DNA of 62,800 nucleotides, filler included, from Stramenopiles sp. TOSAG23-2 (taxonomy: Eukaryota): the NCBI GenBank assembly GCA_900128395.1. It is 10 parts of 10 records of this genome, joined end to end, with 100 filler letters (N's around TTAATTAATTAA, not from the genome) between each part and the next. Parts side by side here need not be neighbours in the genome. Positions count along the whole stretch, not along the records: positions 41,611 to 49,818 come from LT650227.1; 9 more parts are not named here. One strand, written 5' to 3'. Positions 33,202-58,515 of this stretch are shown here, piece after piece. The position numbers and the translations under genes were made by a program. The stretch's first letter is position 1. Every line of letters starts with the position of its first letter. Under the pieces are notes generated by a model. The model was given only the letters and a program-made list of their open reading frames with translations. It searched no databases and was not told the DNA's origin.

Positions 33202-33429
33202 NNNNNNNNNNNNNNNNNNNNNNNNNNNNNNNNNNNNNNNNNNNNTTAATTAATTAANNNNNNNNNNNNNNNNNNNNNNNNNNNNNNNNNNNNNNNNNNN
33301 NAATATTTTTAAGATACAAAAATGTTGATGGAGGAAAAAGATGCAATTAACGCATATATATATAATTTGATAAATATAAAAAAAACTAATAAAAATTACA
33401 CGTACATTTTTATGAATATACACAACAAC

Positions 33430-34458
33430 TTAACTCTTTGTAGCAAAATTTTTCACAAAAGTTGCATTTAATTGTTGAAACAAATCAATATTTTCAATAT
33501 ATACTTTATTTGCTGATACATCATTTAACAAGTCAGGTCCAAATTTGGTTTGAACCATAACGTCTTCATCATTATCCTCATCATTCTTCTTCACTAATAA
33601 TAATGATTTCTCCGACGACGACGACGATGATGATACATAAAATAAGCTTTCTTCTTTATTTTCATTATGGTTTCCTTCATGTTCATCTTCTTCTGCCACG
33701 CATTTATTTTGGAATTTATTTCTCAAGACTTTTTTCAATTCCAATTGTTGTAAATTTAATATAATATTATTATTATCATTACAATTATTGTTAAAAACTG
33801 TATTGCCATATAGTTCTTCTTCAGTTTCGTCATTTAAATTTTTATCTAAATTCAATTCTAACTCCTTCGAAAATTTAATTATATCTTTTGTAAAATTATC
33901 AATGATTGATTTATCGTCAATTGATTCATTCTTTATTAAAAATTTATTTTGTGCTAAATATGACAACATTGAATTTATGCAATATTTCGTACGATTTATC
34001 GAGTATATATAGAAAGGCAATAACTTTGATGACGGTGACACTGTGACATCTTCTTCTTCATTTTCATCTAATGATTGTAACATTAACGTAAAGTAAAATT
34101 TATCAAAAAATATTTCCTCATCCGTTATTGTTGAAATATCAATAGAATACAATATAAAAATATTTAACAACATATCTATAATTCCATTCATGTGTCTTCG
34201 AATCAAGCTTCGTATATTCATTAATGATAATTCGTCCTTTACATCGCCTGACGGGACATTATTTATATTTATTGATAATTCAATTCTAGATATTGGTGGT
34301 GTATATTTTATTTGTCCATCATTATTATAAATATAATATCCACGTTTTTTTAATTCTTTTCGTTTAATTATTTGCATTGATTTTTTACATAATCCATTTA
34401 TATATTTATTTACATTTTCTAAAAACAATTGCAGAGCATCTTCTTCGCGTTGATCCAT
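33430..34458 (-). CDS. Hypothetical acidic protein (palindrome copy 1)
   Basis: ~342 aa from ATG at 34458 (track start is TTG); no family motif recognised. Confidence 0.6.
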   Translation of the reverse strand: MDQREEDALQLFLENVNKYINGLCKKSMQIIKRKELKKRGYYIYNNDGQIKYTPPISRIELSININNVPSGDVKDELSLMNIRSLIRRHMNGIIDMLLNIFILYSIDISTITDEEIFFDKFYFTLMLQSLDENEEEDVTVSPSSKLLPFYIYSINRTKYCINSMLSYLAQNKFLIKNESIDDKSIIDNFTKDIIKFSKELELNLDKNLNDETEEELYGNTVFNNNCNDNNNIILNLQQLELKKVLRNKFQNKCVAEEDEHEGNHNENKEESLFYVSSSSSSSEKSLLLVKKNDEDNDEDVMVQTKFGPDLLNDVSANKVYIENIDLFQQLNATFVKNFATKS

Positions 34459-34755
34459 CTTGTCAGACAACTTTGTTTATTTTTTCTATATCGATATTTT
34501 CGTCGTATGTGTGATATATATAATATGTTGTCGTAATATATTATTATTTAAATTATTATACCTGTAAAGTTAAAGTGTGCAAGTAACATATTGATAGTAT
34601 ACGTGGAGAGATGGACACAGAATATGTATAGAGAAATATAATACGAGCTCGTAACTCATGTGCCAATTCATAGTGCGTTGCACTGTTATATTAAAATTAT
34701 TAACGTATACGACCGTATTAAAATTTTTAATTCTTTAATCTTTTTCTCCTCCTTC

Positions 34756-37320
34756 TTATTCCTCATCTTCCGTCACATACAAATACATATAACCATGTTG
34801 TATTGGTGTTTTCATACTCCAACTCACTTTACGATCATTGAATATAATCCATTTGCCACTATCATCTTTGACGTGGCATACATAATGTCCACTATTCGTA
34901 TTACGACCAACATGACTGATAAATGCTTTAAGTTTATATTTACCAGAATACGATTTACTATTTGTTTCCGTGACAGTATCAACCTTAGTATTATTTTTTG
35001 ATGCTTCCGCAAGTGCTGCTTCGGTTGCAATCATAGTATCAACATTTGCAGAATTTTCAAACAACCACATTACTGCTACATCACCATTGTTGTTATTTTT
35101 TTTCAATGCAAATTTTGCATGTTCCGTGGAAAAACCCATACTACAAATTTGTGCAATTAATGCTGGATCGCCTCCATCACCACCGCCGCCGCCGCCGTTG
35201 CTACTACTACTATTATTACCCCCACTAGGCAATGGATCGTTTATATCAGCATCACCCATATGTGTCATAACCCATTGCATTGCAGGTTCAATTCCAGCGT
35301 TCTGCGTAGCAACAGCAGCACGCTTTCCAGCATTTTCCGAGAAACCCATAGCGGCTATTTGACTGACAATATTTGCATCAGGGACAGGTTCAGCATTTGC
35401 ATTGTTATTACTATCATTTCCATCACTTTCATCTTCTGGCAATTCAACTTCTGAATCTAATTTTCCATTACCTTTCATCGATGTCAAATCCAATGTCTCT
35501 GGCATAAAAATGGTATGATCAAGTTTTTCTTGCTGCCATTGCTCATTTACAATGACACGATTTAAATTTATCCATAGATATTTTGAAAATTTTGAAATTT
35601 TCATCGATTTCGTTGCTTGTGCCTTCCTAACATCTACTTTTTCACCAAGATTAAATTGATCCAATAGTGCTTGGAACGGTATATTTGGTAACACTTTTTC
35701 AGCATTTTCTTTTCCAGCTTTGTTGTCTTTACCATCCTCGCTGTTTTCCACTTTTTGCTTTTTCTTACTAGTTTCAACCTCTTGTAAATTGTCAACAGCT
35801 GATAATGGTATTGCCAATTTCAAAATATTCTCAGGAACATTTTTATATTTAACTTTGCCATTATCCTCGCCACTAATCATTTGCATTCTTTCTTCAAATT
35901 CAAATGTAAATAATTTTGACAAATCTTGCTGGTTGCTACTTTTCGCCTCTGTTTCCAATAGATTAAATAAATGTGCTAAATATTCCGAAGCATCTTGTTG
36001 TAAAGATGTTTTAAAATCAGGATGACCTTTTCCAGCTAATGATTTAAATGCCATCGGTGATATATAAATTTCCTCCTCCTTTAACTTTTTACGAAATTCA
36101 TCCTCTTCCATGTTATATGGTTTTTCCATAGTGCTACGTACAACTTCTGCTTCTTTTAAATAACGATCAGAATGTAACCCACTAGCCAATTTACATAATT
36201 GCAATGTCATATCATCAGATGGCAATTTGTTCCCACAATTGCGGAATGTTTCTGTTGCAATATCTTTTAACTTTTTAAATTCTTCTAAACTCATTAATGT
36301 TTGTAAACATGAATTCATGTAGCAACTATTACCTAAATTTTTCAAACCGATGCGACCTGGAGCATAACAATTAACAAGTTGAACTCCATCTTCTAAGATT
36401 GCACCGTAATTGAAATTTAAATTTAATTCAATTTGCATTTCCGCCATAGATTTTTCAGTCTTTTGCATTTGCATGATATTTATACCAAAATGCGATAAAT
36501 GTTTAGCAAGTTTTGGATCTGCCACCATATCATTTTCATCCTTGGCATAACTATATATATCAGCGCCTTTTGGTGTAATAGTGCCCAATTTAACACATAA
36601 TGGATAAAATTTGCCTTCCTTTTGCATCTCTTCGAAATGCTTTAATGCTGCTCCTGTGCCGCCACTACCATCCCAATTCCGACGGCCACTCCCAATGTAA
36701 CCATCAGATAAATTTAACCATAAATTTTCTGTCATACCACTATCTTCGCATTTCCAATCTTTTGGATTTGGAGAAATTTTTGGTGCATTAGCATCTTGAA
36801 CGAGGTCATTTGCATATTTTGATTCTTTGGGTGGTGGTTCTTCCCATTTTGCTGCTTCTTCCAGATTTGCATCTGAATGGGTTAGCAAAGCTTGGATGGA
36901 ATTCGTTACGCCCATTGGTAGATCATTGCTTGGATATGGCAATTCATTTTCAGCACCATCAATATATATTGAATATTCTTTAGTTGTATCCCATATTTGC
37001 TCTTCATTTTTAAAACCACCTTCAATACCAATTCCAAGTTTCGTGACTGGTTCGGCATTCTTTGTACCATCATCTTTCTCAGGCTCCGGTTTTGGTACTT
37101 TTTTCATTTTGATATGCAAAAATATATCTTTGTCAACATTAGGTGCGATGTTTTGTTTGATATAATCATGCCCATATGCACGAAAACTCATTAAAGATAC
37201 GTATATACCATTTGGTGACAATGGCGTATCATACGAAAACATACACTCATCTTTAAATACACGATCATTATATCCTGGTACTTTAATATTTTTCAATGCC
37301 TCTGGTGTAAATGCTGACAT
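34756..37320 (-). CDS. USP5: Ubiquitin C-terminal hydrolase USP5/USP13/Ubp14 (palindrome copy 1)
   Basis: ZnF-UBP region (ENLWLNLSDGYIGSGRRNWDGSGG, YPLCVKLGTIT), Cys box GLKNLGNSCYMNS, QQDASE, two UBA domains (MGFS) and His box HVGRNTNSGHYVCH. Confidence 0.93.
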   Translation of the reverse strand: MSAFTPEALKNIKVPGYNDRVFKDECMFSYDTPLSPNGIYVSLMSFRAYGHDYIKQNIAPNVDKDIFLHIKMKKVPKPEPEKDDGTKNAEPVTKLGIGIEGGFKNEEQIWDTTKEYSIYIDGAENELPYPSNDLPMGVTNSIQALLTHSDANLEEAAKWEEPPPKESKYANDLVQDANAPKISPNPKDWKCEDSGMTENLWLNLSDGYIGSGRRNWDGSGGTGAALKHFEEMQKEGKFYPLCVKLGTITPKGADIYSYAKDENDMVADPKLAKHLSHFGINIMQMQKTEKSMAEMQIELNLNFNYGAILEDGVQLVNCYAPGRIGLKNLGNSCYMNSCLQTLMSLEEFKKLKDIATETFRNCGNKLPSDDMTLQLCKLASGLHSDRYLKEAEVVRSTMEKPYNMEEDEFRKKLKEEEIYISPMAFKSLAGKGHPDFKTSLQQDASEYLAHLFNLLETEAKSSNQQDLSKLFTFEFEERMQMISGEDNGKVKYKNVPENILKLAIPLSAVDNLQEVETSKKKQKVENSEDGKDNKAGKENAEKVLPNIPFQALLDQFNLGEKVDVRKAQATKSMKISKFSKYLWINLNRVIVNEQWQQEKLDHTIFMPETLDLTSMKGNGKLDSEVELPEDESDGNDSNNNANAEPVPDANIVSQIAAMGFSENAGKRAAVATQNAGIEPAMQWVMTHMGDADINDPLPSGGNNSSSSNGGGGGGDGGDPALIAQICSMGFSTEHAKFALKKNNNNGDVAVMWLFENSANVDTMIATEAALAEASKNNTKVDTVTETNSKSYSGKYKLKAFISHVGRNTNSGHYVCHVKDDSGKWIIFNDRKVSWSMKTPIQHGYMYLYVTEDEE

Positions 37321-37490
37321 CTCGTTCTTTTTCTGCTAATGTAACTATTATAATAATAATATGTTTGCGTTTGTTTGTAATTGTAATGTAAAATTTATAT
37401 TATATATATAATATAAATTTTACATTACAATTACAAACAAACGCAAACATATTATTATTATAATAGTTACATTAGCAGAAAAAGAACGAG

Positions 37491-40055
37491 ATGTCAGCAT
37501 TTACACCAGAGGCATTGAAAAATATTAAAGTACCAGGATATAATGATCGTGTATTTAAAGATGAGTGTATGTTTTCGTATGATACGCCATTGTCACCAAA
37601 TGGTATATACGTATCTTTAATGAGTTTTCGTGCATATGGGCATGATTATATCAAACAAAACATCGCACCTAATGTTGACAAAGATATATTTTTGCATATC
37701 AAAATGAAAAAAGTACCAAAACCGGAGCCTGAGAAAGATGATGGTACAAAGAATGCCGAACCAGTCACGAAACTTGGAATTGGTATTGAAGGTGGTTTTA
37801 AAAATGAAGAGCAAATATGGGATACAACTAAAGAATATTCAATATATATTGATGGTGCTGAAAATGAATTGCCATATCCAAGCAATGATCTACCAATGGG
37901 CGTAACGAATTCCATCCAAGCTTTGCTAACCCATTCAGATGCAAATCTGGAAGAAGCAGCAAAATGGGAAGAACCACCACCCAAAGAATCAAAATATGCA
38001 AATGACCTCGTTCAAGATGCTAATGCACCAAAAATTTCTCCAAATCCAAAAGATTGGAAATGCGAAGATAGTGGTATGACAGAAAATTTATGGTTAAATT
38101 TATCTGATGGTTACATTGGGAGTGGCCGTCGGAATTGGGATGGTAGTGGCGGCACAGGAGCAGCATTAAAGCATTTCGAAGAGATGCAAAAGGAAGGCAA
38201 ATTTTATCCATTATGTGTTAAATTGGGCACTATTACACCAAAAGGCGCTGATATATATAGTTATGCCAAGGATGAAAATGATATGGTGGCAGATCCAAAA
38301 CTTGCTAAACATTTATCGCATTTTGGTATAAATATCATGCAAATGCAAAAGACTGAAAAATCTATGGCGGAAATGCAAATTGAATTAAATTTAAATTTCA
38401 ATTACGGTGCAATCTTAGAAGATGGAGTTCAACTTGTTAATTGTTATGCTCCAGGTCGCATCGGTTTGAAAAATTTAGGTAATAGTTGCTACATGAATTC
38501 ATGTTTACAAACATTAATGAGTTTAGAAGAATTTAAAAAGTTAAAAGATATTGCAACAGAAACATTCCGCAATTGTGGGAACAAATTGCCATCTGATGAT
38601 ATGACATTGCAATTATGTAAATTGGCTAGTGGGTTACATTCTGATCGTTATTTAAAAGAAGCAGAAGTTGTACGTAGCACTATGGAAAAACCATATAACA
38701 TGGAAGAGGATGAATTTCGTAAAAAGTTAAAGGAGGAGGAAATTTATATATCACCGATGGCATTTAAATCATTAGCTGGAAAAGGTCATCCTGATTTTAA
38801 AACATCTTTACAACAAGATGCTTCGGAATATTTAGCACATTTATTTAATCTATTGGAAACAGAGGCGAAAAGTAGCAACCAGCAAGATTTGTCAAAATTA
38901 TTTACATTTGAATTTGAAGAAAGAATGCAAATGATTAGTGGCGAGGATAATGGCAAAGTTAAATATAAAAATGTTCCTGAGAATATTTTGAAATTGGCAA
39001 TACCATTATCAGCTGTTGACAATTTACAAGAGGTTGAAACTAGTAAGAAAAAGCAAAAAGTGGAAAACAGCGAGGATGGTAAAGACAACAAAGCTGGAAA
39101 AGAAAATGCTGAAAAAGTGTTACCAAATATACCGTTCCAAGCACTATTGGATCAATTTAATCTTGGTGAAAAAGTAGATGTTAGGAAGGCACAAGCAACG
39201 AAATCGATGAAAATTTCAAAATTTTCAAAATATCTATGGATAAATTTAAATCGTGTCATTGTAAATGAGCAATGGCAGCAAGAAAAACTTGATCATACCA
39301 TTTTTATGCCAGAGACATTGGATTTGACATCGATGAAAGGTAATGGAAAATTAGATTCAGAAGTTGAATTGCCAGAAGATGAAAGTGATGGAAATGATAG
39401 TAATAACAATGCAAATGCTGAACCTGTCCCTGATGCAAATATTGTCAGTCAAATAGCCGCTATGGGTTTCTCGGAAAATGCTGGAAAGCGTGCTGCTGTT
39501 GCTACGCAGAACGCTGGAATTGAACCTGCAATGCAATGGGTTATGACACATATGGGTGATGCTGATATAAACGATCCATTGCCTAGTGGGGGTAATAATA
39601 GTAGTAGTAGCAACGGCGGCGGCGGCGGTGGTGATGGAGGCGATCCAGCATTAATTGCACAAATTTGTAGTATGGGTTTTTCCACGGAACATGCAAAATT
39701 TGCATTGAAAAAAAATAACAACAATGGTGATGTAGCAGTAATGTGGTTGTTTGAAAATTCTGCAAATGTTGATACTATGATTGCAACCGAAGCAGCACTT
39801 GCGGAAGCATCAAAAAATAATACTAAGGTTGATACTGTCACGGAAACAAATAGTAAATCGTATTCTGGTAAATATAAACTTAAAGCATTTATCAGTCATG
39901 TTGGTCGTAATACGAATAGTGGACATTATGTATGCCACGTCAAAGATGATAGTGGCAAATGGATTATATTCAATGATCGTAAAGTGAGTTGGAGTATGAA
40001 AACACCAATACAACATGGTTATATGTATTTGTATGTGACGGAAGATGAGGAATAA
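37491..40055 (+). CDS. USP5: Ubiquitin C-terminal hydrolase USP5/USP13/Ubp14 (palindrome copy 2)
   Basis: Protein identical to 34756-37320. Confidence 0.93.
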   Translation: MSAFTPEALKNIKVPGYNDRVFKDECMFSYDTPLSPNGIYVSLMSFRAYGHDYIKQNIAPNVDKDIFLHIKMKKVPKPEPEKDDGTKNAEPVTKLGIGIEGGFKNEEQIWDTTKEYSIYIDGAENELPYPSNDLPMGVTNSIQALLTHSDANLEEAAKWEEPPPKESKYANDLVQDANAPKISPNPKDWKCEDSGMTENLWLNLSDGYIGSGRRNWDGSGGTGAALKHFEEMQKEGKFYPLCVKLGTITPKGADIYSYAKDENDMVADPKLAKHLSHFGINIMQMQKTEKSMAEMQIELNLNFNYGAILEDGVQLVNCYAPGRIGLKNLGNSCYMNSCLQTLMSLEEFKKLKDIATETFRNCGNKLPSDDMTLQLCKLASGLHSDRYLKEAEVVRSTMEKPYNMEEDEFRKKLKEEEIYISPMAFKSLAGKGHPDFKTSLQQDASEYLAHLFNLLETEAKSSNQQDLSKLFTFEFEERMQMISGEDNGKVKYKNVPENILKLAIPLSAVDNLQEVETSKKKQKVENSEDGKDNKAGKENAEKVLPNIPFQALLDQFNLGEKVDVRKAQATKSMKISKFSKYLWINLNRVIVNEQWQQEKLDHTIFMPETLDLTSMKGNGKLDSEVELPEDESDGNDSNNNANAEPVPDANIVSQIAAMGFSENAGKRAAVATQNAGIEPAMQWVMTHMGDADINDPLPSGGNNSSSSNGGGGGGDGGDPALIAQICSMGFSTEHAKFALKKNNNNGDVAVMWLFENSANVDTMIATEAALAEASKNNTKVDTVTETNSKSYSGKYKLKAFISHVGRNTNSGHYVCHVKDDSGKWIIFNDRKVSWSMKTPIQHGYMYLYVTEDEE

Positions 40056-40352
40056 GAAGGAGGAGAAAAAGATTAAAGAATTAAAAATTTTAATACGGTC
40101 GTATACGTTAATAATTTTAATATAACAGTGCAACGCACTATGAATTGGCACATGAGTTACGAGCTCGTATTATATTTCTCTATACATATTCTGTGTCCAT
40201 CTCTCCACGTATACTATCAATATGTTACTTGCACACTTTAACTTTACAGGTATAATAATTTAAATAATAATATATTACGACAACATATTATATATATCAC
40301 ACATACGACGAAAATATCGATATAGAAAAAATAAACAAAGTTGTCTGACAAG

Positions 40353-41381
40353 ATGGATCAACGCGAAGAAGATGCTCTGCAATTGTTTTTAGAAAATGTA
40401 AATAAATATATAAATGGATTATGTAAAAAATCAATGCAAATAATTAAACGAAAAGAATTAAAAAAACGTGGATATTATATTTATAATAATGATGGACAAA
40501 TAAAATATACACCACCAATATCTAGAATTGAATTATCAATAAATATAAATAATGTCCCGTCAGGCGATGTAAAGGACGAATTATCATTAATGAATATACG
40601 AAGCTTGATTCGAAGACACATGAATGGAATTATAGATATGTTGTTAAATATTTTTATATTGTATTCTATTGATATTTCAACAATAACGGATGAGGAAATA
40701 TTTTTTGATAAATTTTACTTTACGTTAATGTTACAATCATTAGATGAAAATGAAGAAGAAGATGTCACAGTGTCACCGTCATCAAAGTTATTGCCTTTCT
40801 ATATATACTCGATAAATCGTACGAAATATTGCATAAATTCAATGTTGTCATATTTAGCACAAAATAAATTTTTAATAAAGAATGAATCAATTGACGATAA
40901 ATCAATCATTGATAATTTTACAAAAGATATAATTAAATTTTCGAAGGAGTTAGAATTGAATTTAGATAAAAATTTAAATGACGAAACTGAAGAAGAACTA
41001 TATGGCAATACAGTTTTTAACAATAATTGTAATGATAATAATAATATTATATTAAATTTACAACAATTGGAATTGAAAAAAGTCTTGAGAAATAAATTCC
41101 AAAATAAATGCGTGGCAGAAGAAGATGAACATGAAGGAAACCATAATGAAAATAAAGAAGAAAGCTTATTTTATGTATCATCATCGTCGTCGTCGTCGGA
41201 GAAATCATTATTATTAGTGAAGAAGAATGATGAGGATAATGATGAAGACGTTATGGTTCAAACCAAATTTGGACCTGACTTGTTAAATGATGTATCAGCA
41301 AATAAAGTATATATTGAAAATATTGATTTGTTTCAACAATTAAATGCAACTTTTGTGAAAAATTTTGCTACAAAGAGTTAA
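40353..41381 (+). CDS. Hypothetical acidic protein (palindrome copy 2)
   Basis: Identical to 33430-34458. Confidence 0.6.
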   Translation: MDQREEDALQLFLENVNKYINGLCKKSMQIIKRKELKKRGYYIYNNDGQIKYTPPISRIELSININNVPSGDVKDELSLMNIRSLIRRHMNGIIDMLLNIFILYSIDISTITDEEIFFDKFYFTLMLQSLDENEEEDVTVSPSSKLLPFYIYSINRTKYCINSMLSYLAQNKFLIKNESIDDKSIIDNFTKDIIKFSKELELNLDKNLNDETEEELYGNTVFNNNCNDNNNIILNLQQLELKKVLRNKFQNKCVAEEDEHEGNHNENKEESLFYVSSSSSSSEKSLLLVKKNDEDNDEDVMVQTKFGPDLLNDVSANKVYIENIDLFQQLNATFVKNFATKS

Positions 41382-41610
41382 GTTGTTGTGTATATTCATA
41401 AAAATGTACGTGTAATTTTTATTAGTTTTTTTTATATTTATCAAATTATATATATATGCGTTAATTGCATCTATTTACCTCCACCAACATTTTTGTATCT
41501 TAAAAATATTNNNNNNNNNNNNNNNNNNNNNNNNNNNNNNNNNNNNNNNNNNNNTTAATTAATTAANNNNNNNNNNNNNNNNNNNNNNNNNNNNNNNNNN
41601 NNNNNNNNNN

Positions 41611-44600
41611 GGTAATAATAATAATAATATGACATTGAAAGAATACGTGAATCAAGTCGGTAAAAGTAGTGGTGGTTATGGATGGACACCTTTAATGATA
41701 GCTGCAGAGTACGAACATTTCCAAATAGTTAAATATTTGATTGAACAATGTGAAGCTGATCCTAATATTGCAACTAGTGATGGATGGAATGCATTACATT
41801 TAGCAGCACATAATAACAGAACGACTACTGAGTTGATTCAATTGTTATTAACTCATATGACTATTAATAGCATTAATAAGAAGAACAGGGGGGGATACAC
41901 TCCCCTGGACGTGGCATATGCATATAATGATAATCCAATTCGCCAAGAGATCATTGCACTTATACGTTCAAAAGGTGGAAAAGCAAATTATTTTGATGAA
42001 AATGGTAGAGATGTAGGAGCAGGTAATGGTGATTTAAATGATTTACACAATACTATTAAATCTGAAAATATGGAATTATTTCGGAAATTATTGAATGTAG
42101 ATCATCGTACATTATCTATATACATGTCCAATGATCCAGAAAAGCCCCTATTACGATACGCAATCGATGTGTTAAATATTAACATATATAAAATATTAAT
42201 AAAGGATAAACGTATCAATCTAAACGAGGAAGATTTAGAAATAAAGGGTAAAACTAATTTAAATTATATATGTGAACTGAAATTTGATAAATCCAAAGAA
42301 GAGAAACACCTGGAATTAACAAAGCACATTTATCACAAAACTAAAGCAACCTACCGTGATGAAGATGATCGAGATCGTTATGCCATAGTACGTTATTGCA
42401 AATGGCCATTAGTTGTTAAATGGGCCAAATCCCTTGGTACAAAATTTCAACGTTATAAAATAATGAATGAAGAAGAACCAATACATCAATCATCAACATC
42501 AATTGTATTTTTCGCAACAGATGTTAAAGACAATAATAACAATGTAGCATTAAAACTGATGAGAAATTACGAAGAATTTGAACGTGAAATTATATCACGT
42601 TTCAGTAATAATAACAATAAAACAATTGATAAATGTGTAGTTAAAGTAATTGGTTGGCATTTACCAAATGACAATAACAAGCCATCTATTAAAACAAATA
42701 AACGTGATAATGTAACAGAACCAACTTTTCATGGAGATAAGCCATATGTATTGGTCATGGAGCGAGGAAGCAAATCTCTTTTTCATCAACTTGTTACACA
42801 ACGTATTGCTGGTTGTCACATAGACACAATTATCAATATTTTTCAACACGCTGTAATTAAAGTGAAAGCATTACATGATTTAAATTATGTACATTGTGAT
42901 TTAAAACCACGGAATTTTTTATATGTTAAACGCGATGGCATCAAAGAAGAACAATTATTATTATGTGATATGGATGCAGCATGCCAAAAAGATAGTCAAC
43001 GTGATGAAACATTAAAATATAGCACAGGGTATTGTCCACCTGAATTAGCTCGTTGTATATTCACCGCTAATGACCAAATGAACAAAATCGAAACATCATT
43101 TGATGTTTGGTCATTAGGTGTATTATTATACGAATTATGCACTGGTCAAAATTTATTTCCACAAGATATTAGTAATGATAATATTGTTAATGAAATCGAT
43201 AAAAGTATTTTATGCGCATGGCATACTATTCCTGATTCATATTTAAACTTAGTTGATTTTCCAAACAATCTACAAATGACAAAAGATGCCCGAAATTTAA
43301 TTCGATGGTGTTTAAAAGGAAGTCCATCTAGTAGACCGTCACTAAAAAATATATTAAATCATCGATTATTAAATGGAAATAATGATTTGGATAAACAACC
43401 AATGAAATACCATATGTTTATATCCCATATGCAAGCTGAATCTTCAGGGGAAGTGGCGGCTTTGGAAAAATCATTAGCCACATTAGGTATAAATGTATGG
43501 CGGGATATGTCTCAAACAAATATTAATCCAAACGGCATGATCCAAGGTGTAATTGATACAGATGTATTTGTAGTTATGTTAACTAATAGCTATATGTCAA
43601 GAAAGTATTGTCTATTAGAATTTGCTACTGCATTATTATATCAAAAACCAATTATTGTTATAGTAGAAGAAAATAAAATGTTTTGGCAATGGGATTTAAA
43701 ACGTTGGCAGGGAAACATTTGTTCGCGCAAAACGGATAATATATCAACAGAAGAACGTGGATGGAAAAAGTCTATTGACTATGATGCTGACGGCAATCCA
43801 GTATCAAATTTACAAAATACATATGAAGATCTTGAAACGAAAGATATGGGATTTACAAATTTTCAAGCTTTTAAAACTATGACAAAAGATTTGAAATTGT
43901 CAAACTTTCAAGCGTTACAAACGAATAAAGCAAATCATATACGTGATAAAATAATTGAAATTGACGAGAAGAAAGAAATGATACCCCATCGTCGTCGTGG
44001 ATTTGAATATGATGCAATGCTATATGAGGTCATAGAACGAGCTGGTATTAAAATTCCCGTTCCAAAATCGCCAAAATTTAAACATGATCACAAATTCATG
44101 GTAATTTATAATAATACGACACAAGCAGAAAAAAAAAACGGTGAAGACATTATAAATTCATTAGAAGAAGAAGGTATGAACCAAACATATACAGAGAATA
44201 TTACAGCTGTTGAATATCTAATAGTTATTTTAACGGGTGGTGTAATGGAAAATCCAACATGTTTAGAAAATTTCAAAAACATTCTGGTAACGAGGAAAGA
44301 TTTATTAGATGATAAAAAGGTTATTTTTATCATGTCAAAACATGATGGTTGGAAATTTGAACCAAGTGCGACAGAGAAAGCAGCGAAAAATGTCACAGCT
44401 AAAGAAGTACGAAAGGTGATTAATGATGGTCATGAAGTTATGACATATCGACCAAAAGGTTTAAATCGTGATTATGAGCATGATTCGATGATGGTGGAAA
44501 TGATGAAACGTTTGGGCTTGGCAACAGTAGAAGAAGTTGCGACAATGAACGAACAGCAGAATGGTGTGGTGGTGGTGGTGGATACGGAAGAAGAAGAGAA

Positions 44601-44637
44601 AGTTGGTGTTGATGATGATGAACGCAAAGAAGATTGA
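41611..44637 (+). CDS. Ankyrin-repeat / non-RD protein kinase / TIR / TIR-like protein, probably 5' truncated
   Basis: Ankyrin repeats (WTPLMIAA, WNALHLAA, YTPLDVA). Kinase at ~42470-43370 (VALK, HCDLKPRN, DMD, YCPPE, DVWSLG). TIR from 43405 (YHMFISH..LGINVWRDM..GVIDTDVFVVMLTNSYMSRKYCLLEFATAL). A second degenerate TIR at ~44092-44517. The frame is open to the contig start. Confidence 0.85.
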   Translation, partial: GNNNNNMTLKEYVNQVGKSSGGYGWTPLMIAAEYEHFQIVKYLIEQCEADPNIATSDGWNALHLAAHNNRTTTELIQLLLTHMTINSINKKNRGGYTPLDVAYAYNDNPIRQEIIALIRSKGGKANYFDENGRDVGAGNGDLNDLHNTIKSENMELFRKLLNVDHRTLSIYMSNDPEKPLLRYAIDVLNINIYKILIKDKRINLNEEDLEIKGKTNLNYICELKFDKSKEEKHLELTKHIYHKTKATYRDEDDRDRYAIVRYCKWPLVVKWAKSLGTKFQRYKIMNEEEPIHQSSTSIVFFATDVKDNNNNVALKLMRNYEEFEREIISRFSNNNNKTIDKCVVKVIGWHLPNDNNKPSIKTNKRDNVTEPTFHGDKPYVLVMERGSKSLFHQLVTQRIAGCHIDTIINIFQHAVIKVKALHDLNYVHCDLKPRNFLYVKRDGIKEEQLLLCDMDAACQKDSQRDETLKYSTGYCPPELARCIFTANDQMNKIETSFDVWSLGVLLYELCTGQNLFPQDISNDNIVNEIDKSILCAWHTIPDSYLNLVDFPNNLQMTKDARNLIRWCLKGSPSSRPSLKNILNHRLLNGNNDLDKQPMKYHMFISHMQAESSGEVAALEKSLATLGINVWRDMSQTNINPNGMIQGVIDTDVFVVMLTNSYMSRKYCLLEFATALLYQKPIIVIVEENKMFWQWDLKRWQGNICSRKTDNISTEERGWKKSIDYDADGNPVSNLQNTYEDLETKDMGFTNFQAFKTMTKDLKLSNFQALQTNKANHIRDKIIEIDEKKEMIPHRRRGFEYDAMLYEVIERAGIKIPVPKSPKFKHDHKFMVIYNNTTQAEKKNGEDIINSLEEEGMNQTYTENITAVEYLIVILTGGVMENPTCLENFKNILVTRKDLLDDKKVIFIMSKHDGWKFEPSATEKAAKNVTAKEVRKVINDGHEVMTYRPKGLNRDYEHDSMMVEMMKRLGLATVEEVATMNEQQNGVVVVVDTEEEEKVGVDDDERKED

Positions 44638-44836
44638 TAAAAAAAGGGGTGTATGTTTTATATAATATATATAATCATATTTAAAAAAAAGAACATTTAT
44701 CATATCATAGTAAAATATTTTAAAATAAAACTCCGCCTTCTTTTCCCTTTTCTCTTTTTTAATTACTCTTCTCTTACTTTCCATCCCCTCATTCCTTCAC
44801 TACACAACCCATTTTACACCACGCACCCTCTACATA

Positions 44837-45883
44837 TTAAACCACATGCCCTTTCATCGTGAAATGTTGTAAACTTCCAGTAAAATCATCTTTTAAATTC
44901 AATTTAAAACCATTCTTCACATTCACCACATCGACATATTCATTTCCATCTAATGCTTTTCTACCAATTTTACGTATTTTATGTTTTTTATATTGTATAC
45001 GTTTCTTTTGACTATTATCACCACCACCACCACCATCATCATTACCATATGATAATTTCGTATTAAATGTATGAAAATTTAATTGGCTACCATTACTTTC
45101 TGTATTTTCATCAACACAATAAATTGCACAACGTACATATGTACCATATGGAATAATTTCTAAATACCAATTTTCATGTTCATTATTATTATTTAAACTA
45201 ATACCACCAGTATTGACATTTTGAACAGGTACTTTACTAAAACCTTTTACACCACAAAATTTCTGATGTGTAACAACAATACTATAAACACATGTCGATG
45301 TTTCACTTACATCTTTAATTTTAAATGTACTACCACATGCATATGTTACTGTCGTTTCACGTTTTGGTTCACCAGTCACTGCTTTACATACTTCACCATC
45401 AACATATCGTTGTGATTTACGATTTGGATTATTTGAATTTGATGATACAACAGTTTTTCCCATTAAATAATGTTCTTGTTTATGTTTTTGTTTGACATGT
45501 TTACCTATACATACTTCATAATTCCAAAAACCTTTATCTGAAGATGCACAACGTCCATTTAATTGTTGTATAATTGTTGCAGCTGTGATTTCTGGTGTTT
45601 TCGCTTTTTTCTTCTTCTTCTCTGCTTCTTCTTCTTTTTTATTATTATTATCATCCGTTGTTTTTTTCTCTTGTTTTTTAGACGTGGATGTTTTATATTT
45701 AAATTCACAAGATATTATTTCACCAGTTGGCATAGTCGATATAACTTTTTGTGAATTTGTTTCTTCTTTTCCAATTGTAAATGCAACAACATCATTGTTT
45801 TCATGATTTTCTTCATTTTCAGAAGCATGATTGATTTGGATCAATGTTGTAATAACAATGATAAGGAATATTATATTTTTCAT
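44837..45883 (-). CDS. OS-9/PRKCSH-like ER lectin with an MRH domain
   Basis: Signal peptide; CASSDKGFWNYEVCIGKHVKQKH, YVDGEVC..KRETTVTYAC and VSETSTCVYSIVVTHQKFC keep the Q-R-E-Y mannose-binding residues. Confidence 0.8.
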   Translation of the reverse strand: MKNIIFLIIVITTLIQINHASENEENHENNDVVAFTIGKEETNSQKVISTMPTGEIISCEFKYKTSTSKKQEKKTTDDNNNKKEEEAEKKKKKAKTPEITAATIIQQLNGRCASSDKGFWNYEVCIGKHVKQKHKQEHYLMGKTVVSSNSNNPNRKSQRYVDGEVCKAVTGEPKRETTVTYACGSTFKIKDVSETSTCVYSIVVTHQKFCGVKGFSKVPVQNVNTGGISLNNNNEHENWYLEIIPYGTYVRCAIYCVDENTESNGSQLNFHTFNTKLSYGNDDGGGGGDNSQKKRIQYKKHKIRKIGRKALDGNEYVDVVNVKNGFKLNLKDDFTGSLQHFTMKGHVV

Positions 45884-46231
45884 TGCTTTCTTTGTTGTGT
45901 ATATCTTTATGAATATATATTGATTCTTAATCCAAATTTATCTAAATTTATCTAAAATTATAATTCTTATTTTTTTTTTTTCCCCGTCTACGAAATAATT
46001 TCAAAAAGTGTTGATATATTAACTCTGTTTGCTTTTTGTTATAATGATGATGTTTCTACACACACACACACACACACTTTCGTACAACCAACAATATTTT
46101 CTCTCATTTTACAACTTCACCTCGGTTACCAAGCAAGGAAACATGTCGGGCAAGCACAATATTCACCACATTTATTCATTTTTTTGCTGCTTTTATTAGA
46201 GCTGTGTTGAGTGTTGAGCCGAAGAGGTTAA

Positions 46232-47003
46232 AAATGGCAGAATTTATTAAATTTTATTTTTTATTTTCAACTTTTTTTTTTTTTCTTACCCTCCCTCTAT
46301 AATATAGCTCTATAGGCTCTAGGATCTAGGATTTAATATTAATATATATAGTAGATATTGACTTAAAGTAAAAAGTAATTAAGATATTTTTAACTTTTAT
46401 TTCAGGTTTGCAACTTGCAACTTGCAACTGGTCAAAAAATAGTTGATTATATTTCGAGCCCTTTACAGCTGTGCTCAGGATTACTTTAGTTTTATTAAAA
46501 GTATCGATCAATTAAGTATTGTATATTGTTTATTATTTTCAACCTTTTTTTTTTCTTACCCTCTAGCATTTAATATAATATAGTAGATATTGACTTAAAG
46601 TAAAAATAATTAAGATATTTTTTTAACTTTTATTTCAGGTTTGCAACTTACAACTGGTCAAAATATCAAAATACAGTCGATTATATTGATTACATTTTGA
46701 GCCCTTTACAGCCGTGCTCAGGATTACTTTAGTTTTATTAAAAGTATATCGATCAATTAAGTATTGTATATTGTATAAGTATTGTATGTAGCATTACGTA
46801 AATTTTGTTTTATTATTTTCAACCTTTTTTTATTTTTCTTATAGCATGAACTAGCATTACGTATTTATATATTAATATTTATTTTTAAAAAAACCTCTGA
46901 AATTGCTTGTGTAATGTTATTTCTATCCTAGAGGGGGGCTGAAAAAAAACAAAAGTTGAAAAAAAAAATTAAAAAATTTCAATTTTATTAACTTTTGCCA
47001 TCT
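46232..47003. mobile_element. Candidate degraded non-autonomous DNA transposon with TTAA flanks and imperfect TIRs (Kolobok-like)
   Basis: The left end TTAA|AAATGGCAGAATTTATTAAA..TTCAACTTTT..CCCTCTA matches the reverse complement of the right end TTAA|AGATGGCAAAAGTTAATAAAA..TTCAACTTTT..CCCTCTA. There is an internal ~240-bp imperfect tandem repeat and no ORF. Confidence 0.45.
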
Positions 47004-47321
47004 TTAATGTAAATAACTCTAATTTACATTTTTTATTATTTATTATATATACTATAAGAGGCATATGTCACACATATTGTATTAATGATCAATCCAAATA
47101 ATAAAATATTGTTATTCATTGTCGTATATATATATATATATTGTGAATTTCGCATCGTATATTACGTTGTATACGAAATTAAATTTGTGGAATTTTTTTT
47201 TTTTAGATTATTTTTTTTTCATCGTCATCATCATCATTAATTAAATATTTTTATTATTTAAAACTCTTCAAATTAAATACAATCAAGCATTTAAATTATA
47301 TATTACCATATATCAGTAAAC

Positions 47322-48681
47322 ATGCCAACTAAATCCAATTCCATACCACTTGGTACACGAACCGCCGTATATACAGATACAACTGGTAACAACGATCATG
47401 CCGGTGATAATCCCAATATCCCAAGCAATAACAGGAACAACAATAATAATAAACGAAAACGGGATAATAATAATATTCCAATAAGACGTTTTAATGATGA
47501 TGATGATGTTAATAACAATCATAATAGTAATAAACGTTATCGTTCACATTCACGTAGTCATTCTCGTCATGGGCATAGCAATACGAACTACAACTACAAC
47601 AAACAACACAATCGAAGATATCGTTCCAATTCACGTAGTCATTCTCGTTACAATAACAACAACAAACAACACAATCGAAGATATCGTTCCAATTCACGTA
47701 GTCATTCCCCACCAAAACGTGCTATACATGATAAATTTACATTTGAAATGCCACCAAGAATATATCCATATATGAATCCACGAATACGCAATGCACGTAC
47801 TGTTTTATTGACAAATATCAACACAAATGTTGGTGCATTAGATATTAAAATGTTTTTTGAACAATATAATCATTTACATGATTTAAATCAAGTAGTTGTT
47901 GGTAAAAAGAATATTTCAAGTAATCAAAACATTATTCCAACCACCACCACAACCACGACGACGACAACGGAAAAAAACAATAATACTATTATTGATGATA
48001 AAAAACCAACAGCGGATGATGTAAACCATCAAATAAAGAACAGTAAGGAGGAAGATACTGGCGCTGATGATGAAACAAACAAACAAACAACAAAGAAAAC
48101 CAATGGATTACCATTGTTAAAAATATATGATATAAGTATATTATTACATCCAAGATTACAAGAAAGAAAGAAATCACCTTCTCAACAATTTATTACCTAT
48201 AGTAATCGTAGACAATCTAAATGTATTGCATATGTTGAATTTCAATCGATTAAAATGGCAGAAATAGCTATTAGACGATATAATTCAAAAGAATTTCTTT
48301 ATCAGTAAGTATATAATTTTACATATTTATATATATATATATATTAACAATATTATATCAAAAATGCATACTAACTATCATCATCATTATTATTTATATT
48401 TACATATTTATATATAATATAGAAATGGTATTAAAAGTCAATATAAAGTACGTATACAACCTGCAGTGGATCGAATGGATAATCAATCCGATTTAGCAAT
48501 GGAAGAAGAAAAAGAATGGTTTAAAAATAAAATAGCATATGATGAAAATATTAAAACACGTCGACGATTTCATTCAAAAGATGGTGAAGAAGAGGAAGAG
48601 GAGGAGAAAGATGGCGATGACAAATACGATGGTGATAATAATTATAATTATTACAATAAAGATGCTATTATAGTTCTTTAG
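47322..48681 (+). CDS. RS-rich RRM protein (RBM39-like RRM); two exons, 47322-48304 and 48423-48681
   Basis: RS/H repeats, RNP2 RTVLLTNI and RNP1 SKCIAYVEF. Intron 48305-48422 (GTAAGT..ACTAAC..ATAG) joins in frame to ORF 48466-48681 and supplies the last strand KVRIQPA. Confidence 0.75.
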
Positions 48682-49025
48682 ATAATAAAAAAGTATTATA
48701 GCAACGTGCTGGTTGTGTATATATAATACTTTTTTGTTTTTTTATATATATTTTAAAAACAAATTTCGAAAAAAAAAAATTTAAATTTTAATTTTTTTTC
48801 TGAATTTTTGAAAAGTTTTGATTATTTACTTTTTCAACATACAAATAGATTATACAAATTGTAACGTGTGAACAATACAATTACATACAAGTAAAATCAC
48901 ATAGAATAAAACCGAGATAGATAGATTTCGTTCTACATTATATTAGCATCATAGGTTAATTTATAACGACGATATTTATTTATTTATATATCCAGATTAT
49001 TATAAATATAAAATCAACAAAAAAC

Positions 49026-49770
49026 ATGTACTACAATAATAATAATCATTCGTCATCGTTCAGATCATCTCAACAACGTGCGACATATATCGATTGTAAC
49101 AATAAAACATTACGTATACAAAAACATTTAGGGTCAGGTGTATTTGGTAACGTATATAAAGCATATGAAACAAATACAGGAAATGAATATGCAATTAAAA
49201 TGACAAAATATAATAATATTGAACCAGAAAAAGGTATAAATGAAATTCAAATATTAAAATATTTACAACATTATAATGATATCGATCAAAAAAATAAAGA
49301 ACATGGTAATAATAATAACAACAACAACAACAATATTATTAAATTTATCAATTCGTTTATCTATCGTGTAAAGAATAATGACTATGAATCAACTAATAAT
49401 GATAAAAAAGATAAAGTACATAATGAATTTTTATCATATCGTTGTATTGTTATGGATTATGTTGGACCATTTACATTACGAGATGCATTGAATAAAGGTT
49501 ATATTACGGATGTAATTCAATATAATAATAATAACATCAATAGAACAAATTGCGATGATCGTTATACTATTAAACAAGTCATGAAAGATATATTAAGCGC
49601 GGTTACATTTATGCATTCATTAAATATAACACATCGTGATATAAAACCAGAAAATATTATTTGTCAAATTAGTTCCAATCGTATCGTTCGCGTCGTTTTA
49701 GCTGATTTTGGTTGTGGTAAAATGTTGACATATAATTCAAATGAAAATCATATTTTATTATCAACAACAA

Positions 49771-49802
<32 letters not shown>

Positions 49803-49818
49803 CAATTAGTAACATCAT
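49026..49818 (+). CDS. Ser/Thr protein kinase, 3' truncated
   Basis: LGSGVFGNVYKA, YAIK, HRDIKPEN and LADFG, with poly-Asn inserts. Confidence 0.9.
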
Positions 49819-49918
49819 NNNNNNNNNNNNNNNNNNNNNNNNNNNNNNNNNNNNNNNNNNNNTTAATTAATTAANNNNNNNNNNNNNNNNNNNNNNNNNN
49901 NNNNNNNNNNNNNNNNNN

Positions 49919-54293: not shown

Positions 54294-55226
54294 TTACTCT
54301 CTTCCTGGTACAAATCTACCATTTTCATCAAAACAATTTGCTTTTCCACCTTTTGAACGTATAAGATCAATGATCTCTTGTTTAATTGGACTATTATTAT
54401 ATTGGTATACCAGATCCAATACTGTCTCTCCTCTATCATTTGTATTATTAATACTATCATCAGTCATATGACTTAATAACAATTGAATCAACTCAGTACT
54501 CTTTACGTTATTCTCTCCTGCATAATGTAAGGCATTCCATCCACAACTATCTTTAATATTAGGATCAGCATCATGTTGTTCAATCAAATATTTAACTATT
54601 TGGAAATGTTCGTTCCATACAGCTATCATTAAAGGTGTCCAACATTCATAACCATCACTATCTCCACCGAATTGATTCACCATATCTCTCAATGTCATAT
54701 CATCTCTGTAGCCATTAACATCACGATTAGTAATATACTTGTGATAAGGATGAAGACTCATAAATAATTCTACATCATCCATACGTCCGTGTTCACATGC
54801 ACATACAATAGGTGTTGGTACTTCACCATCTGCATCTTCTGGAAACTCTTGTTTATATCTTACAATTAATAAATAAAGTCTTCTCGCTGGATGTGTTAGT
54901 AGTATCTCATTTATACTTCTTCTACCTTCATAACTTAGACTCAATGCTATATCACGTACACGTTCAAAATCATCTGATCCAAATGCTTTTCTACATTGTT
55001 GTATTAAAGATGATCGTTTCACATTACATAATGTTTTAATGTCTAAATATTGTAATATATTTAACATGATCCCGCAGGCAGATTCAAATCCAGCTGGTAA
55101 AACTAATATACCAATCTTAATAGGTGGTGGTGCCCTTTTTTGTTTTAACCCTTCAATTGTTGATGGTTTTAACAACGTACGACATTGTCGTTTTGCAGGT
55201 GGTTGGTTAGTGGTCATCGATGCCAT
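54294..55226 (-). CDS. F-box-like motif plus ankyrin-repeat protein
   Basis: VLPAGFESACGIMLNILQYLDIKTLCNV is F-box-like. Ankyrin repeats PTPIVCAC, WTPLMIAV, WNALHYAG and ETVLDLV. ATG at 55226 or 55241. Confidence 0.75.
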   Translation of the reverse strand: MASMTTNQPPAKRQCRTLLKPSTIEGLKQKRAPPPIKIGILVLPAGFESACGIMLNILQYLDIKTLCNVKRSSLIQQCRKAFGSDDFERVRDIALSLSYEGRRSINEILLTHPARRLYLLIVRYKQEFPEDADGEVPTPIVCACEHGRMDDVELFMSLHPYHKYITNRDVNGYRDDMTLRDMVNQFGGDSDGYECWTPLMIAVWNEHFQIVKYLIEQHDADPNIKDSCGWNALHYAGENNVKSTELIQLLLSHMTDDSINNTNDRGETVLDLVYQYNNSPIKQEIIDLIRSKGGKANCFDENGRFVPGRE

Positions 55227-56562
55227 GATGTGTTTATACATATATATATATATATTCTCTTGTTTGTTTTTTTTTACTATATGTATCTTTGTATGTACGT
55301 ACCTGTATGTTGCTTATTATATTTATATCTTTATAATACTGTGTATATATATCTTTGCTTTTTTTCTTCTTAATAACCAGAATTCTTGGAAAATGGTTTA
55401 CCTGTGGTTTACCTTAACTTTGCAGACCTGGCTCCAGAATTCCAGTGCCGGCACATCCAGGATTCCAGAATTCCATAATTCCAGAAATAATTGAAAAAGA
55501 GAAGATTTGGATTTATTATACAGAAATAAAAAAATAAAAAAAAATGAAGAGGGCAAGAAATTATTTTTCTTTAAACCTGAAAAAAGATCAACTCAACTTT
55601 GCCAGTTTGCCAGTTGTTTGCTGTTTCGGGATGAAATTCGTTTAAAAAAGAATTGATAGTTTAGCAAGAACATACCATCATATTTCACTTCCTATATACC
55701 GCGCCTCGAAACTCGAAAATATAACCAATAAGAAGTAACACTACTTTTCATAGTCTAACAAGTGAAAAAAAATGAAAAATTCACAACATTTTAGTACGAA
55801 ACCATAGAGTACAAAATCACATTTTATTGATAGGTAAAAATTCAAATTCCATGAAAAAATAAAAAGTTAAAAATTGCAAAAAATAAATACCTTCACGGTG
55901 ACGATTTTTGATGAAAACCAAAACCTTAAAAAATTAGTATACTATTTATTGTACTTTTTGAAATTGAAATATTTTGACCGTACTGAAAACGGTTCCTGCC
56001 CAAATGTAGTGAATTTTGTAAAAGTTTATACTCATTAGTATATGGATTTGTGTTTATATTATGTGTTGTTTTATTTTCAGGGCATATATAGGAACAATAA
56101 TTTCAATAATGTGCCGTTATTTGAAAGTGAGATTTATCAAAAAATAACACAATAAATTATTTTGCAAATAATCTATTATTTTTGATAGGTAAAAACGATC
56201 ATCCCTGTGCTATTTGTATGTATCGATACATAATGATGAGAGTTAAAAAATTAGCTAGAAGTCTGGGAATAATAGCTTTATTATTTGGAAGAGAACCCGC
56301 GCATCAATGCTAATGTACTACCTGGTATGATGCACACAGCATAAAAATAAAGAAAAAATACCAACAAAGGTATATAAAGTGGAGTGTGGTAAATATAGAT
56401 ATTGAAAAATACAGAGAAAAAGAAATTGCGAACTTTGTTAAACAAAGATATTGTCACACACGCAAAATATAAAAATATAAAATACATTTATAAACGTACA
56501 TTGGATTTAATATCCCCCCACCCCCCAAACCCCTCAGAAAAAAACTAACAAAAATAAAAAAA

Positions 56563-58122: not shown

Positions 58123-58515
58123 NNNNNNNNNNNNNNNNNNNNNNNNNNNNNNNNNNNNNNNNNNNNTTAATTAATTAANNNNNNNNNNNNNNNNNNNNNN
58201 NNNNNNNNNNNNNNNNNNNNNNCATTTAAGGAGATTACAGACAGCGTGTATAATGATACAATCGGTGAATTGACAAAGACAAATTCGTCCGGTCGATTGT
58301 TACGTTGATTGCGGTTTCTTATATATGTGTGCGTGTGTGTGTGTATTAATAAAATAATTACTTTTTTAAAACTACACTATACACAGTAATTCGATTTTTT
58401 ACTTTAATTATTGAAATTATTAACTCTTGTGTGTTCTTGTTGTTTTAGTTTTGTGGAGTAAATAGGAATATTTTTGTACTTATTACAATATATGATTAAA
58501 TTATATGTATAATAA

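Follow-up and report, generated by a model that had tools for sequence, protein, structure and literature searches.

In bacteria and plants, TIR domains act as immune enzymes; in animals they were for a long time regarded as adaptors, and there they reach kinases only by way of separate adaptor proteins. Here we describe a gene that encodes ankyrin repeats, an atypical protein kinase domain and two tandem TIR domains in a single polypeptide. The gene lies in a 62,800-nucleotide stretch of DNA (hereafter, the window) taken from the genome assembly of Stramenopiles sp. TOSAG23-2 (GCA_900128395.1), on a piece derived from record LT650227.1. A first-pass annotation of this DNA proposed that the protein is an intracellular immune receptor in which ligand binding by the ankyrin repeats triggers kinase and TIR output.

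The closest described proteins are the ‘Kinase TLRs’ and ‘Kinase TIRs’ of choanoflagellates, which Richter et al. named and reported as unique to choanoflagellates within their data set (Richter et al., 2018; PMC6040629). These proteins are uncharacterised, and the authors proposed a streamlined pathway for them. Like the window protein, they combine Pkinase and TIR domains in one chain with the kinase first, and they occur both as soluble forms and as forms with LRRs and a membrane span. The likeness is one of domain content: the sections of that paper that treat these fusions (PMC6040629) do not mention a second TIR domain, an HxD/DMD kinase signature or ankyrin, WD40 or Kelch domains, and the host of the present gene is a probable stramenopile rather than a choanoflagellate. 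In our literature searches, only this paper and its preprint described a kinase-TIR fusion, and broader searches returned no description of the family.

The TIR proteins SARM1 and Caenorhabditis elegans TIR-1 are the best structural matches of the first TIR domain (TIR1; Z 14.6 and 14.3) and share with it a catalytic-position Glu in helix alphaC. Each of the two consists of several domains, and those outside the TIR control its NADase activity. The window protein differs in having a kinase and a second TIR domain (TIR2) and no ARM or SAM domain, and its identity to these proteins is about 20%. In the plant RPS4/RRS1 system, a catalytic TIR is paired with a regulating TIR that lacks the catalytic Glu (PMC13732033). 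The window protein likewise contains a Glu-bearing and a Glu-less TIR, and both match the heterodimer entry 4c6t. The plant TIRs, however, reside on two NB-ARC/LRR proteins, whereas those of the window protein are in tandem in one chain with no NTPase domain.

The MyD88-IRAK/Pelle system of animal Toll signalling also couples TIR signalling to a Ser/Thr kinase, but in animals it is death domains that link the proteins, which are separate chains. No death domain was found in the window protein, whose nearest solved kinase by sequence is TTK, not IRAK. IRAK1 is a non-RD kinase. Dictyostelium TirE resembles the window family in architecture: it has repeats plus two diverged tandem TIRs, but the repeats are of the RCC1 type and it lacks a kinase (Culbertson et al., 2026 preprint; PMC13142454). 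The same preprint presents a 13-clade TIR tree with several uncharacterised eukaryote-only clades; its main text contains no occurrence of ‘kinase’ or ‘stramenopile’, and its supplementary tables may list the family (PMC13142454). Finally, bacterial Pkinase-TIR_2 and Pkinase-ThsB_TIR clusters of the ESM Atlas combine the same two domains and are nearest to amino acids (aa) 270-975 of the window protein (0.93 and 0.96), a language-model resemblance with no alignment behind it.

Domain architecture of the ankyrin-kinase-TIR-TIR protein

The gene lies entirely within the piece at 41611-49818 of the window and forms a single open reading frame (ORF) of 1002 aa on the + strand (41629-44637, stop codon 44635-44637). 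This frame runs open from 41611, where the piece begins after a linker of Ns, and its first ATG is at 41629. The contig end thus cuts the gene at its 5′ end and removes the N-terminus of the protein. Alignment A1 shows about 70 residues ahead of the position of Met1 in the closest homologue (P0003, 1059 aa), and many more ankyrin units in a second homologue (P0002). In a related ankyrin cassette encoded elsewhere in the window (ORF 54294-55241, − strand), the equivalent Met is residue 182, that is, 181 residues lie upstream of it. No consistent sequence upstream of 41611 was found in any run examined; the contig joints and loose ends seen at 41612-41630 coincide with an AAT-repeat and were not interpreted.

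Pfam profiles recover Ank_2 (E 5.1e-25, aa 22-114), Pkinase (E 9.2e-31, 107.6 bits against a cut-off of 31.7) and TIR_2 (E 4.5e-8, 34.1 bits against a cut-off of 28, aa 597-681) in the 1002-aa ORF. Over TIR2, PF01582 matches under its cut-off (E 0.0017, 18.6 bits against 21.3, aa 855-908). The order of ankyrin repeats, kinase, TIR and TIR given in the first-pass annotation is therefore borne out, for TIR2 at the level of the fold, and every motif it named sits where it was placed.

From the N-terminus, the + strand encodes the ankyrin-repeat cassette (41629-42015, aa 1-129), a linker conserved in the closest homologues (42016-42471, aa 130-281), the kinase domain (42472-43374, aa ~282-582), TIR1 (43399-44055, aa 591-809), TIR2 (44083-44526, aa 819-966) and an acidic, poorly conserved C-terminal tail (44554-44634, aa 976-1002). 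The Pkinase match, motifs and conservation delimit the kinase; the TIR_2 match above cut-off, a structural model and conservation delimit TIR1; the model gives TIR2 its TIR fold. The linker blocks LLRYAID, LNYICE and WAKSLGTKFQRYKI are common to the query, P0002 and P0003 in alignment A1. In the tail, the predicted local distance difference test score (pLDDT) falls below 50 (model residues 392-418), and aa 985 is occupied in only 3 of the 46 aligned sequences.

The Pfam scan of the ORF contains no NTPase, death, SAM or ARM domain. The NB-ARC or NACHT NTPase of NLR/STAND receptors is absent at E<=1, and the ARM-SAM-SAM-TIR arrangement of the SARM1 family is not found among the Pfam matches. In a hydropathy scan, the only 19-residue stretch scoring at least 1.6 lies within the TIR1 core (aa 661). 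With no membrane-like segment outside that core, the protein carries Pkinase and TIR in one chain without a transmembrane segment, as do the Kinase TIRs.

The ankyrin cassette (aa 1-129) is 68% identical to that of the ORF at 54294-55241 (−), which lies on a different piece. It is also 53-75% identical to at least 10 matches that cover only 11-14% of the query, the ankyrin-sized part; several of these matches have other partner domains. In each of the four runs, summed contig depth over 41611-42158 is very high, consistent with a repeated cassette. The proposal that the ankyrin repeats are a private ligand sensor is weakened by these identities; the repeats look like a shared, highly conserved cassette. 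The 315-aa product of ORF 54294-55241 ends in its ankyrin cassette and stops soon after, with no kinase or TIR. The cassette recurs in many unrelated database proteins, some of which carry RING or MYND fingers.

PADLOC matches to mad6, PD-T4-6 and MkoA cover mainly the kinase and were read as generic kinase similarity. Weaker PADLOC matches fall on the TIR region (PDC-S66, aa 582-658; SAVED5--SAVED_TIR, aa 595-644) and on the ankyrin part (PDC-M72A, aa 18-66).

A kinase-TIR-TIR core behind varied N-terminal domains

We identified 751 database cluster representatives that match the TIR-TIR part of the protein (aa 585-1002) at E<=1e-3, of which 230 match at E<=1e-10 and 25 at E<=1e-30. The first-pass annotation had regarded the architecture as one not known from characterised proteins; with 751 representatives, and with Kinase TIRs named earlier, it is not unique.

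All 49 listed representatives of at least 600 aa were scanned with Pfam. Pkinase is present in 44 of them (23 of 25 at E<=1e-6 and 21 of 24 at E<=1e-8) and always precedes the TIR. The representatives lacking it are P0123, P0147, P0236, P0239 and P0259, the last of which still matches the query kinase by phmmer. N-terminal domains among the 49 include Ank (6 proteins), LRR_6 or LRR_4 (7 proteins) and, in one protein each, WD40, Kelch, PA, CH, SAM and ANF_receptor with 5′-nucleotidase_C. HEAT, SPRY, ubiquitin and EF-hand domains occupy this position among the whole-protein homologues, and one family member has a C-terminal Abhydrolase_2 domain. The 2121-aa protein P0260 encodes 5′-nucleotidase_C and ANF_receptor, a strong membrane-like segment near residue 1120, and then the kinase and TIR. 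P0260 is thus a receptor-type form of the same kinase-TIR core.

The core is matched by 181 of 254 stored homologues. TIR1 is covered by 162, kinase and TIR1 together by 77, TIR1 and TIR2 by 97, and all three domains by 57; these counts are lower bounds, as many of the sequences are fragments. Judged from these sequences, the family has a constant core in a fixed order (atypical kinase, Glu-bearing TIR, degenerate TIR) with varied domains in front. This three-part core, comprising a Gly-less non-RD kinase, a Glu-bearing SARM1-like TIR and a dead TIR behind swappable heads, appears to be undescribed, as does the presence of a kinase-TIR core outside choanoflagellates.

A homologue search restricted to aa 585-975 returned 6 proteins. 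In the wider family, the sole match with an organism name and both kinase and TIR_2 is a protein labelled ‘NLRC3’ from the stramenopile Hondaea fermentalgiana. No choanoflagellate is present among the named homologue matches, most matches carrying no name. A scan of prokaryote genomes with alignment A1 produced no TIR and just two matches of a generic kinase kind (L001 and L002, over query residues 404-510), and a scan of viral contigs with the same alignment produced 0 relatives among 83 pattern matches. These scans thus revealed no bacterial or viral relative of the module at their sensitivity.

An atypical kinase domain with conserved catalytic residues

The kinase domain contains VALK (aa 306-309, 42544-42555; Lys309 at 42553-42555), HCDLKPRN (aa 422-429, 42892-42915; Asp424 at 42898-42900) and DMD (aa 447-449, 42967-42975; Asp447 at 42967-42969). 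The stretch ahead of VALK reads IHQSSTSIVFFATD and lacks every Gly of the canonical GxGxxG loop; the ATP loop is of an H-x-S-x-T-S type (H-Q-S-S-T-S), and the Gly of DFG is missing as well. HCD stands in place of the HRD of RD kinases. Catalytic Lys309, Glu320, Asp424, Asn429 and Asp447 are all present. These features confirm an earlier description of the domain as one with HCDLKPRN, DMD and no Gly-rich loop that keeps the VALK Lys and the catalytic Asp, Lys and Asn.

We measured conservation across the 57 three-domain homologues and the query (n=58, fast MAFFT alignment). Conserved positions include Lys309 (53 of 58), Glu320 (55), His422 (56), Asp424 (57), Lys426 (57), Asn429 (58), Asp447 (58), Pro471 (57), Glu472 (54) and Arg569 (58). 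The column that holds Arg in HRD contains Gly in 34 sequences, Ser in 10, Cys in 6, Ala in 5, Met in 1 and Arg in 1. At the DFG columns, Asp is followed by Met (30), Leu (20) or Phe (6) and then by Asp (52); the last residue is never Gly. The ATP loop follows the pattern H (41)-x-S (46)-x-T (39)-S (22), C (17) or A (8). By this pattern, the unusual motifs are constrained signatures of the family rather than decay of one gene. Since all phosphotransfer residues are kept, we favour the reading of the domain as an active, atypical kinase of the Ser/Thr type.

The closest solved kinase by sequence is the cell-cycle kinase TTK (E 1.2e-11), which has HSDLKPANFL where the query has HCDLKPRNFL. Because TTK is itself non-RD (HSD), the non-RD state points to immunity only weakly, and the argument that the first-pass annotation built on it loses force.

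A Glu-bearing TIR domain and a degenerate TIR domain

TIR1 contains FISH (aa 597-600, 43417-43428) and SRKYCLLEF (aa 657-665, 43597-43623), with Glu664 at 43618-43620. A model of both TIR domains (aa 585-1002, 46 aligned sequences) has a mean pLDDT of 84.7 and a predicted template modelling score (pTM) of 0.85. In VIA-align comparisons, model residues 9-222 superpose on the SARM1 TIR with a Z of 14.6 (root-mean-square deviation (rmsd) 2.0, 130 of 140 residues, 20% identity) and on C. elegans TIR-1 with a Z of 14.3. Many other TIRs follow, among them the scaffold TIRs of IL-18Rbeta (Z 12.8) and MyD88 (Z 11.9). Foldseek matches TIR1 to the TIRs of Roq1, RPP1, RPS4, RUN1, SARM1 and AbTir with a probability of 1.00. 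A TIR fold is thus predicted for the segment (43405-44045) in which the first-pass annotation expected one. For the two-domain model, the highest-ranking Foldseek matches (KefC, PleD and others, rmsd 17-22 Å) were disregarded, since they resemble it only globally, as two-Rossmann proteins.

Glu664 lies in the helix that follows the third strand (model residues 75-86). It aligns with the Glu of flax L6 ‘CLMEL’ (a weak match, E 0.12) and is invariant in 46 of 46 and 58 of 58 aligned sequences. The L6 alignment and this invariance support the earlier assignment of the Glu at 43618-43620 to the catalytic position. In the same weak L6 match (E 0.12), Asp626 (57 of 58) aligns with the first Asp of ‘RDD’. 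An R-R-R-x-F-E motif after the last strand of TIR1 is also strongly conserved (Arg788, 57 of 58; Arg789, 58; Arg790, 58; Glu793, 58). TIR1 contains a clade-specific insertion of ~70 residues at about aa 696-768 (43714-43932) that is rare among relatives, with a residue present in 5 of 46 sequences at aa 705 and in 1 of 46 at aa 745. Conservation and modelling together suggest that TIR1 is a SARM1-like, putative NAD+-cleaving TIR.

TIR2 modelled alone (aa 815-978) has a pLDDT of 93.4. TIR or SEFIR domains fill its VIA-align ranks 1-18 (Z 11.4 to 8.6), including SARM1 (11.4 and 11.3), Cat1 (11.2), AtTIR (11.0), TIR-1 (10.9) and IL-18Rbeta (10.2), whereas generic flavodoxin and CheY folds reach a Z of at most 8. 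The best Foldseek match of TIR2 is the RPS4 TIR (E 9.9e-4). Scanned alone, TIR2 matches no Pfam family at E<=0.01. BLASTP of the TIR1 core against TIR2 gives nothing significant (E 2.5), so an origin of TIR2 by duplication is not supported by sequence.

The position of the catalytic Glu in TIR2 would be Asn881, in a putative register set by strand and helix and counted from the third strand as in TIR1. This column is unconserved in the 58-sequence alignment (Gln 11, His 9, Ala 8, Asn 6, Leu 6, Thr 3), as is the neighbouring one (Glu 13, Asp 10, Gln 7, Ala 7). TIR2 has invariant or nearly invariant residues of its own, including Trp908 (56 of 58), Phe910 (57), Glu936 (58) and Arg941 (57). With no conserved Glu at the catalytic position, TIR2 is not a second NADase site. 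The pTM of 0.85 indicates that TIR1 and TIR2 are predicted to pack together, and we read TIR2 as a probable non-catalytic (‘dead’, degenerate) TIR that packs on TIR1. A two-copy complex prediction of aa 589-976 scored 0.29 against a mark of 0.32 and was used neither for nor against self-association. A profile of alignment A2 compared with solved structures was dominated by the kinase tails of some fragments and gave no TIR alignment.

Proposed function

We give even chances to the reading that the protein is soluble or cytosolic and acts in signalling or immunity, with an atypical kinase that is active, a TIR that cleaves NAD+ and a dead TIR that has a regulatory role. Its role is likely to be in cell-autonomous defence, stress signalling or cell death. 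We infer the immune function, the NADase activity and the kinase activity. What the analysis shows is the domains, folds, conserved residues and family membership. The interpretation in the first-pass annotation is partly supported, and its ankyrin-sensor and non-RD arguments are weakened.

Under this proposal, the N-terminal repeats would hold the protein on a partner or ligand, and a change at the repeats would draw molecules together. TIR1 would then form an active site and cleave NAD+, leading to NAD+ depletion or to an ADP-ribose-derived signal, and the kinase would phosphorylate itself or a substrate. By analogy with the Glu-less RRS1 TIR and its RPS4 partner, the dead TIR2 may pack on TIR1 and either restrain or template it.

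Several observations weigh against this proposal. The ATP loop has no Gly and the Gly of DFG is replaced by Asp, changes that can mark pseudokinases in other kinases. The high conservation and sharing of the ankyrin part are easier to reconcile with a common docking module than with a variable sensor. An NTPase or other oligomerisation switch is absent from the Pfam scan, and the lost N-terminus may hold further domains or a membrane anchor. The BB-loop Gly could not be placed in TIR1, as the Gly of the L6 loop falls in an alignment gap. The BB-loop Asp and Gly are described as crucial for TIR NADase activity (PMC13732033). Contigs from an RNA library are no proof of transcription, and the taxonomic placement of the host depends on a gene on a different piece of the window.

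Alternative explanations

One alternative is that the fused frame is an amplification or assembly chimera and that no such protein exists. The assembly does hold chimeric contigs: the neighbouring piece at 33302-41510 is a perfect palindrome, with arms at 33335-37405 and 37406-41476 that are 100% complementary and have no spacer. The palindrome duplicates an 854-aa UBP5-type ubiquitin hydrolase (34756-37320, − strand; 37491-40055, + strand) and a 346-aa ORF, and most likely arose as a chimera during amplification or assembly rather than in the organism. We therefore tested the fused frame of the kinase-TIR gene itself for chimerism. P0003 and P0002 are 59% and 55% identical to the query, respectively, over 96% of its length, and both keep its domain order, with a linker that can be aligned. 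A second small DNA run (X2) yielded one gap-free contig over 42403-44045 that bridges kinase and TIR1 with 37 differences, and a further X2 contig spans 44077-44783. In a partial list of these differences, 35 could be classified; of the 30 codons that they affect, 15 keep their amino acid and 15 do not, and no catalytic residue is altered by any of the 35. Contigs of an RNA library (X7) cover 43107-43319, 43513-44183, 44164-44364 and 44342-44642, with about 97-98% likeness over 43513-44183 and 44164-44642, and are a hint of expression. The ankyrin-to-kinase junction (42159-42402) is bridged by no listed contig of the other runs, and its integrity is indicated by the homologues. The three-domain core is common to 57 other proteins. 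A chimera, which the first-pass annotation named as fatal to its proposal, is thus very improbable, and the ankyrin-kinase-TIR-TIR gene is genuine and 5′-truncated.

For the genuine gene, the kinase might lack phosphotransfer altogether and act as a nucleotide- or ligand-binding regulator that restrains the TIR NADase, much as ARM does in SARM1. The lack of Gly in the ATP loop and the D[ML]D replacement of DFG hold family-wide, and the strict order of kinase then TIR fits an intramolecular regulator. Pseudokinases, however, usually lose at least one phosphotransfer residue, whereas Lys309, Glu320, Asp424, Lys426, Asn429 and Asp447 are each kept in 53-58 of 58 sequences, and the substrate-side motifs PPE and DxWxxG are kept too; we consider a pseudokinase unlikely. 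We assign a similarly low probability to the possibility that the TIRs are purely protein-protein scaffolds, as in TLR/MyD88, with the fused kinase in the place of IRAK and no NAD+ cleavage. Richter et al. proposed a streamlined pathway of this kind for the choanoflagellate Kinase TLRs and Kinase TIRs (PMC6040629), and scaffold TIRs are good matches of both TIR1 (IL-18Rbeta and MyD88) and TIR2 (IL-18Rbeta). The best structural matches, however, are the enzymes SARM1 and TIR-1, and a pure scaffold gives no obvious reason for keeping a Glu that is invariant across the family.

If the reading of an active kinase and an NAD+-cleaving TIR is extended to the family as a whole, it may represent a widespread class of protist innate immune receptors without a STAND NTPase. 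In such a class, swappable heads (ANK, LRR, WD40, Kelch or extracellular ligand-binding domains) would be wired to a dual-output effector, namely a Gly-less non-RD kinase and a SARM1-like NADase TIR under an in-chain pair of catalytic and dead TIRs. We regard this generalisation as speculative and would expect it to fail more often than to hold. If true, it would provide a single-chain counterpart of both the MyD88-IRAK link and the RPS4/RRS1 pair. With or without this generalisation, the family offers a simple system in which to ask how TIR enzymes are activated when no NLR scaffold is present, and whether phosphorylation is coupled to NAD+ cleavage. Its existence also takes kinase-TIR fusions outside the choanoflagellates, which bears on whether the animal TIR-kinase link has an ancient origin or arose repeatedly.

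Host and genomic context

The host is a marine protist, probably a stramenopile. An arginine methyltransferase gene on another piece of the window has 24 best matches that name an organism, of which 23 are to stramenopiles (oomycetes, a bicosoecid, Hondaea, Blastocystis, brown algae and others) and 1 is to Brassica. The kinase-TIR gene sequence or close relatives of it are present in marine metagenomes and metatranscriptomes, where their shares are small except in runs X1 and X2.

Ten distinct pieces, seven measuring ~8.2 kb and three ~1.46 kb, make up the window and are chained by N linkers at 8242-8341, 16581-16680, 24893-24992, 33202-33301, 41511-41610, 49819-49918, 58123-58222, 59683-59782 and 61242-61341. 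A script resolved these linkers into nine pairs of 44-base N runs with 12 bases between the members of each pair; in the pair at 41511-41554 and 41567-41610, the intervening bases (41555-41566) read TTAATTAATTAA. Because the window is a chain of joined pieces, gene order across a linker is meaningless, and genes before 41611 or after 49818 are not neighbours of the kinase-TIR gene.

The true downstream neighbour of the kinase-TIR gene encodes a PRKCSH/OS-9-like lectin-domain protein with a hydrophobic N-terminus (44837-45883, − strand). Beyond it lies a gene (47322-48308) whose product, an RRM protein, contains extended Asn and Ser-Arg-rich runs. An ordinary RD-type kinase gene (HRDIKPEN; 49026-49818, + strand) runs off the 3′ end of the same contig, and its product resembles the ankyrin-kinase-TIR protein only by generic kinase similarity. 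Elsewhere in the window, three long ORFs (794, 1193 and 984 aa) at 10282-16255 (− strand) and 21994-24948 (+ strand) match no Pfam family at E<=1e-5. GC and AT skew are both strongly negative over the 10-16 kb stretch of the window.

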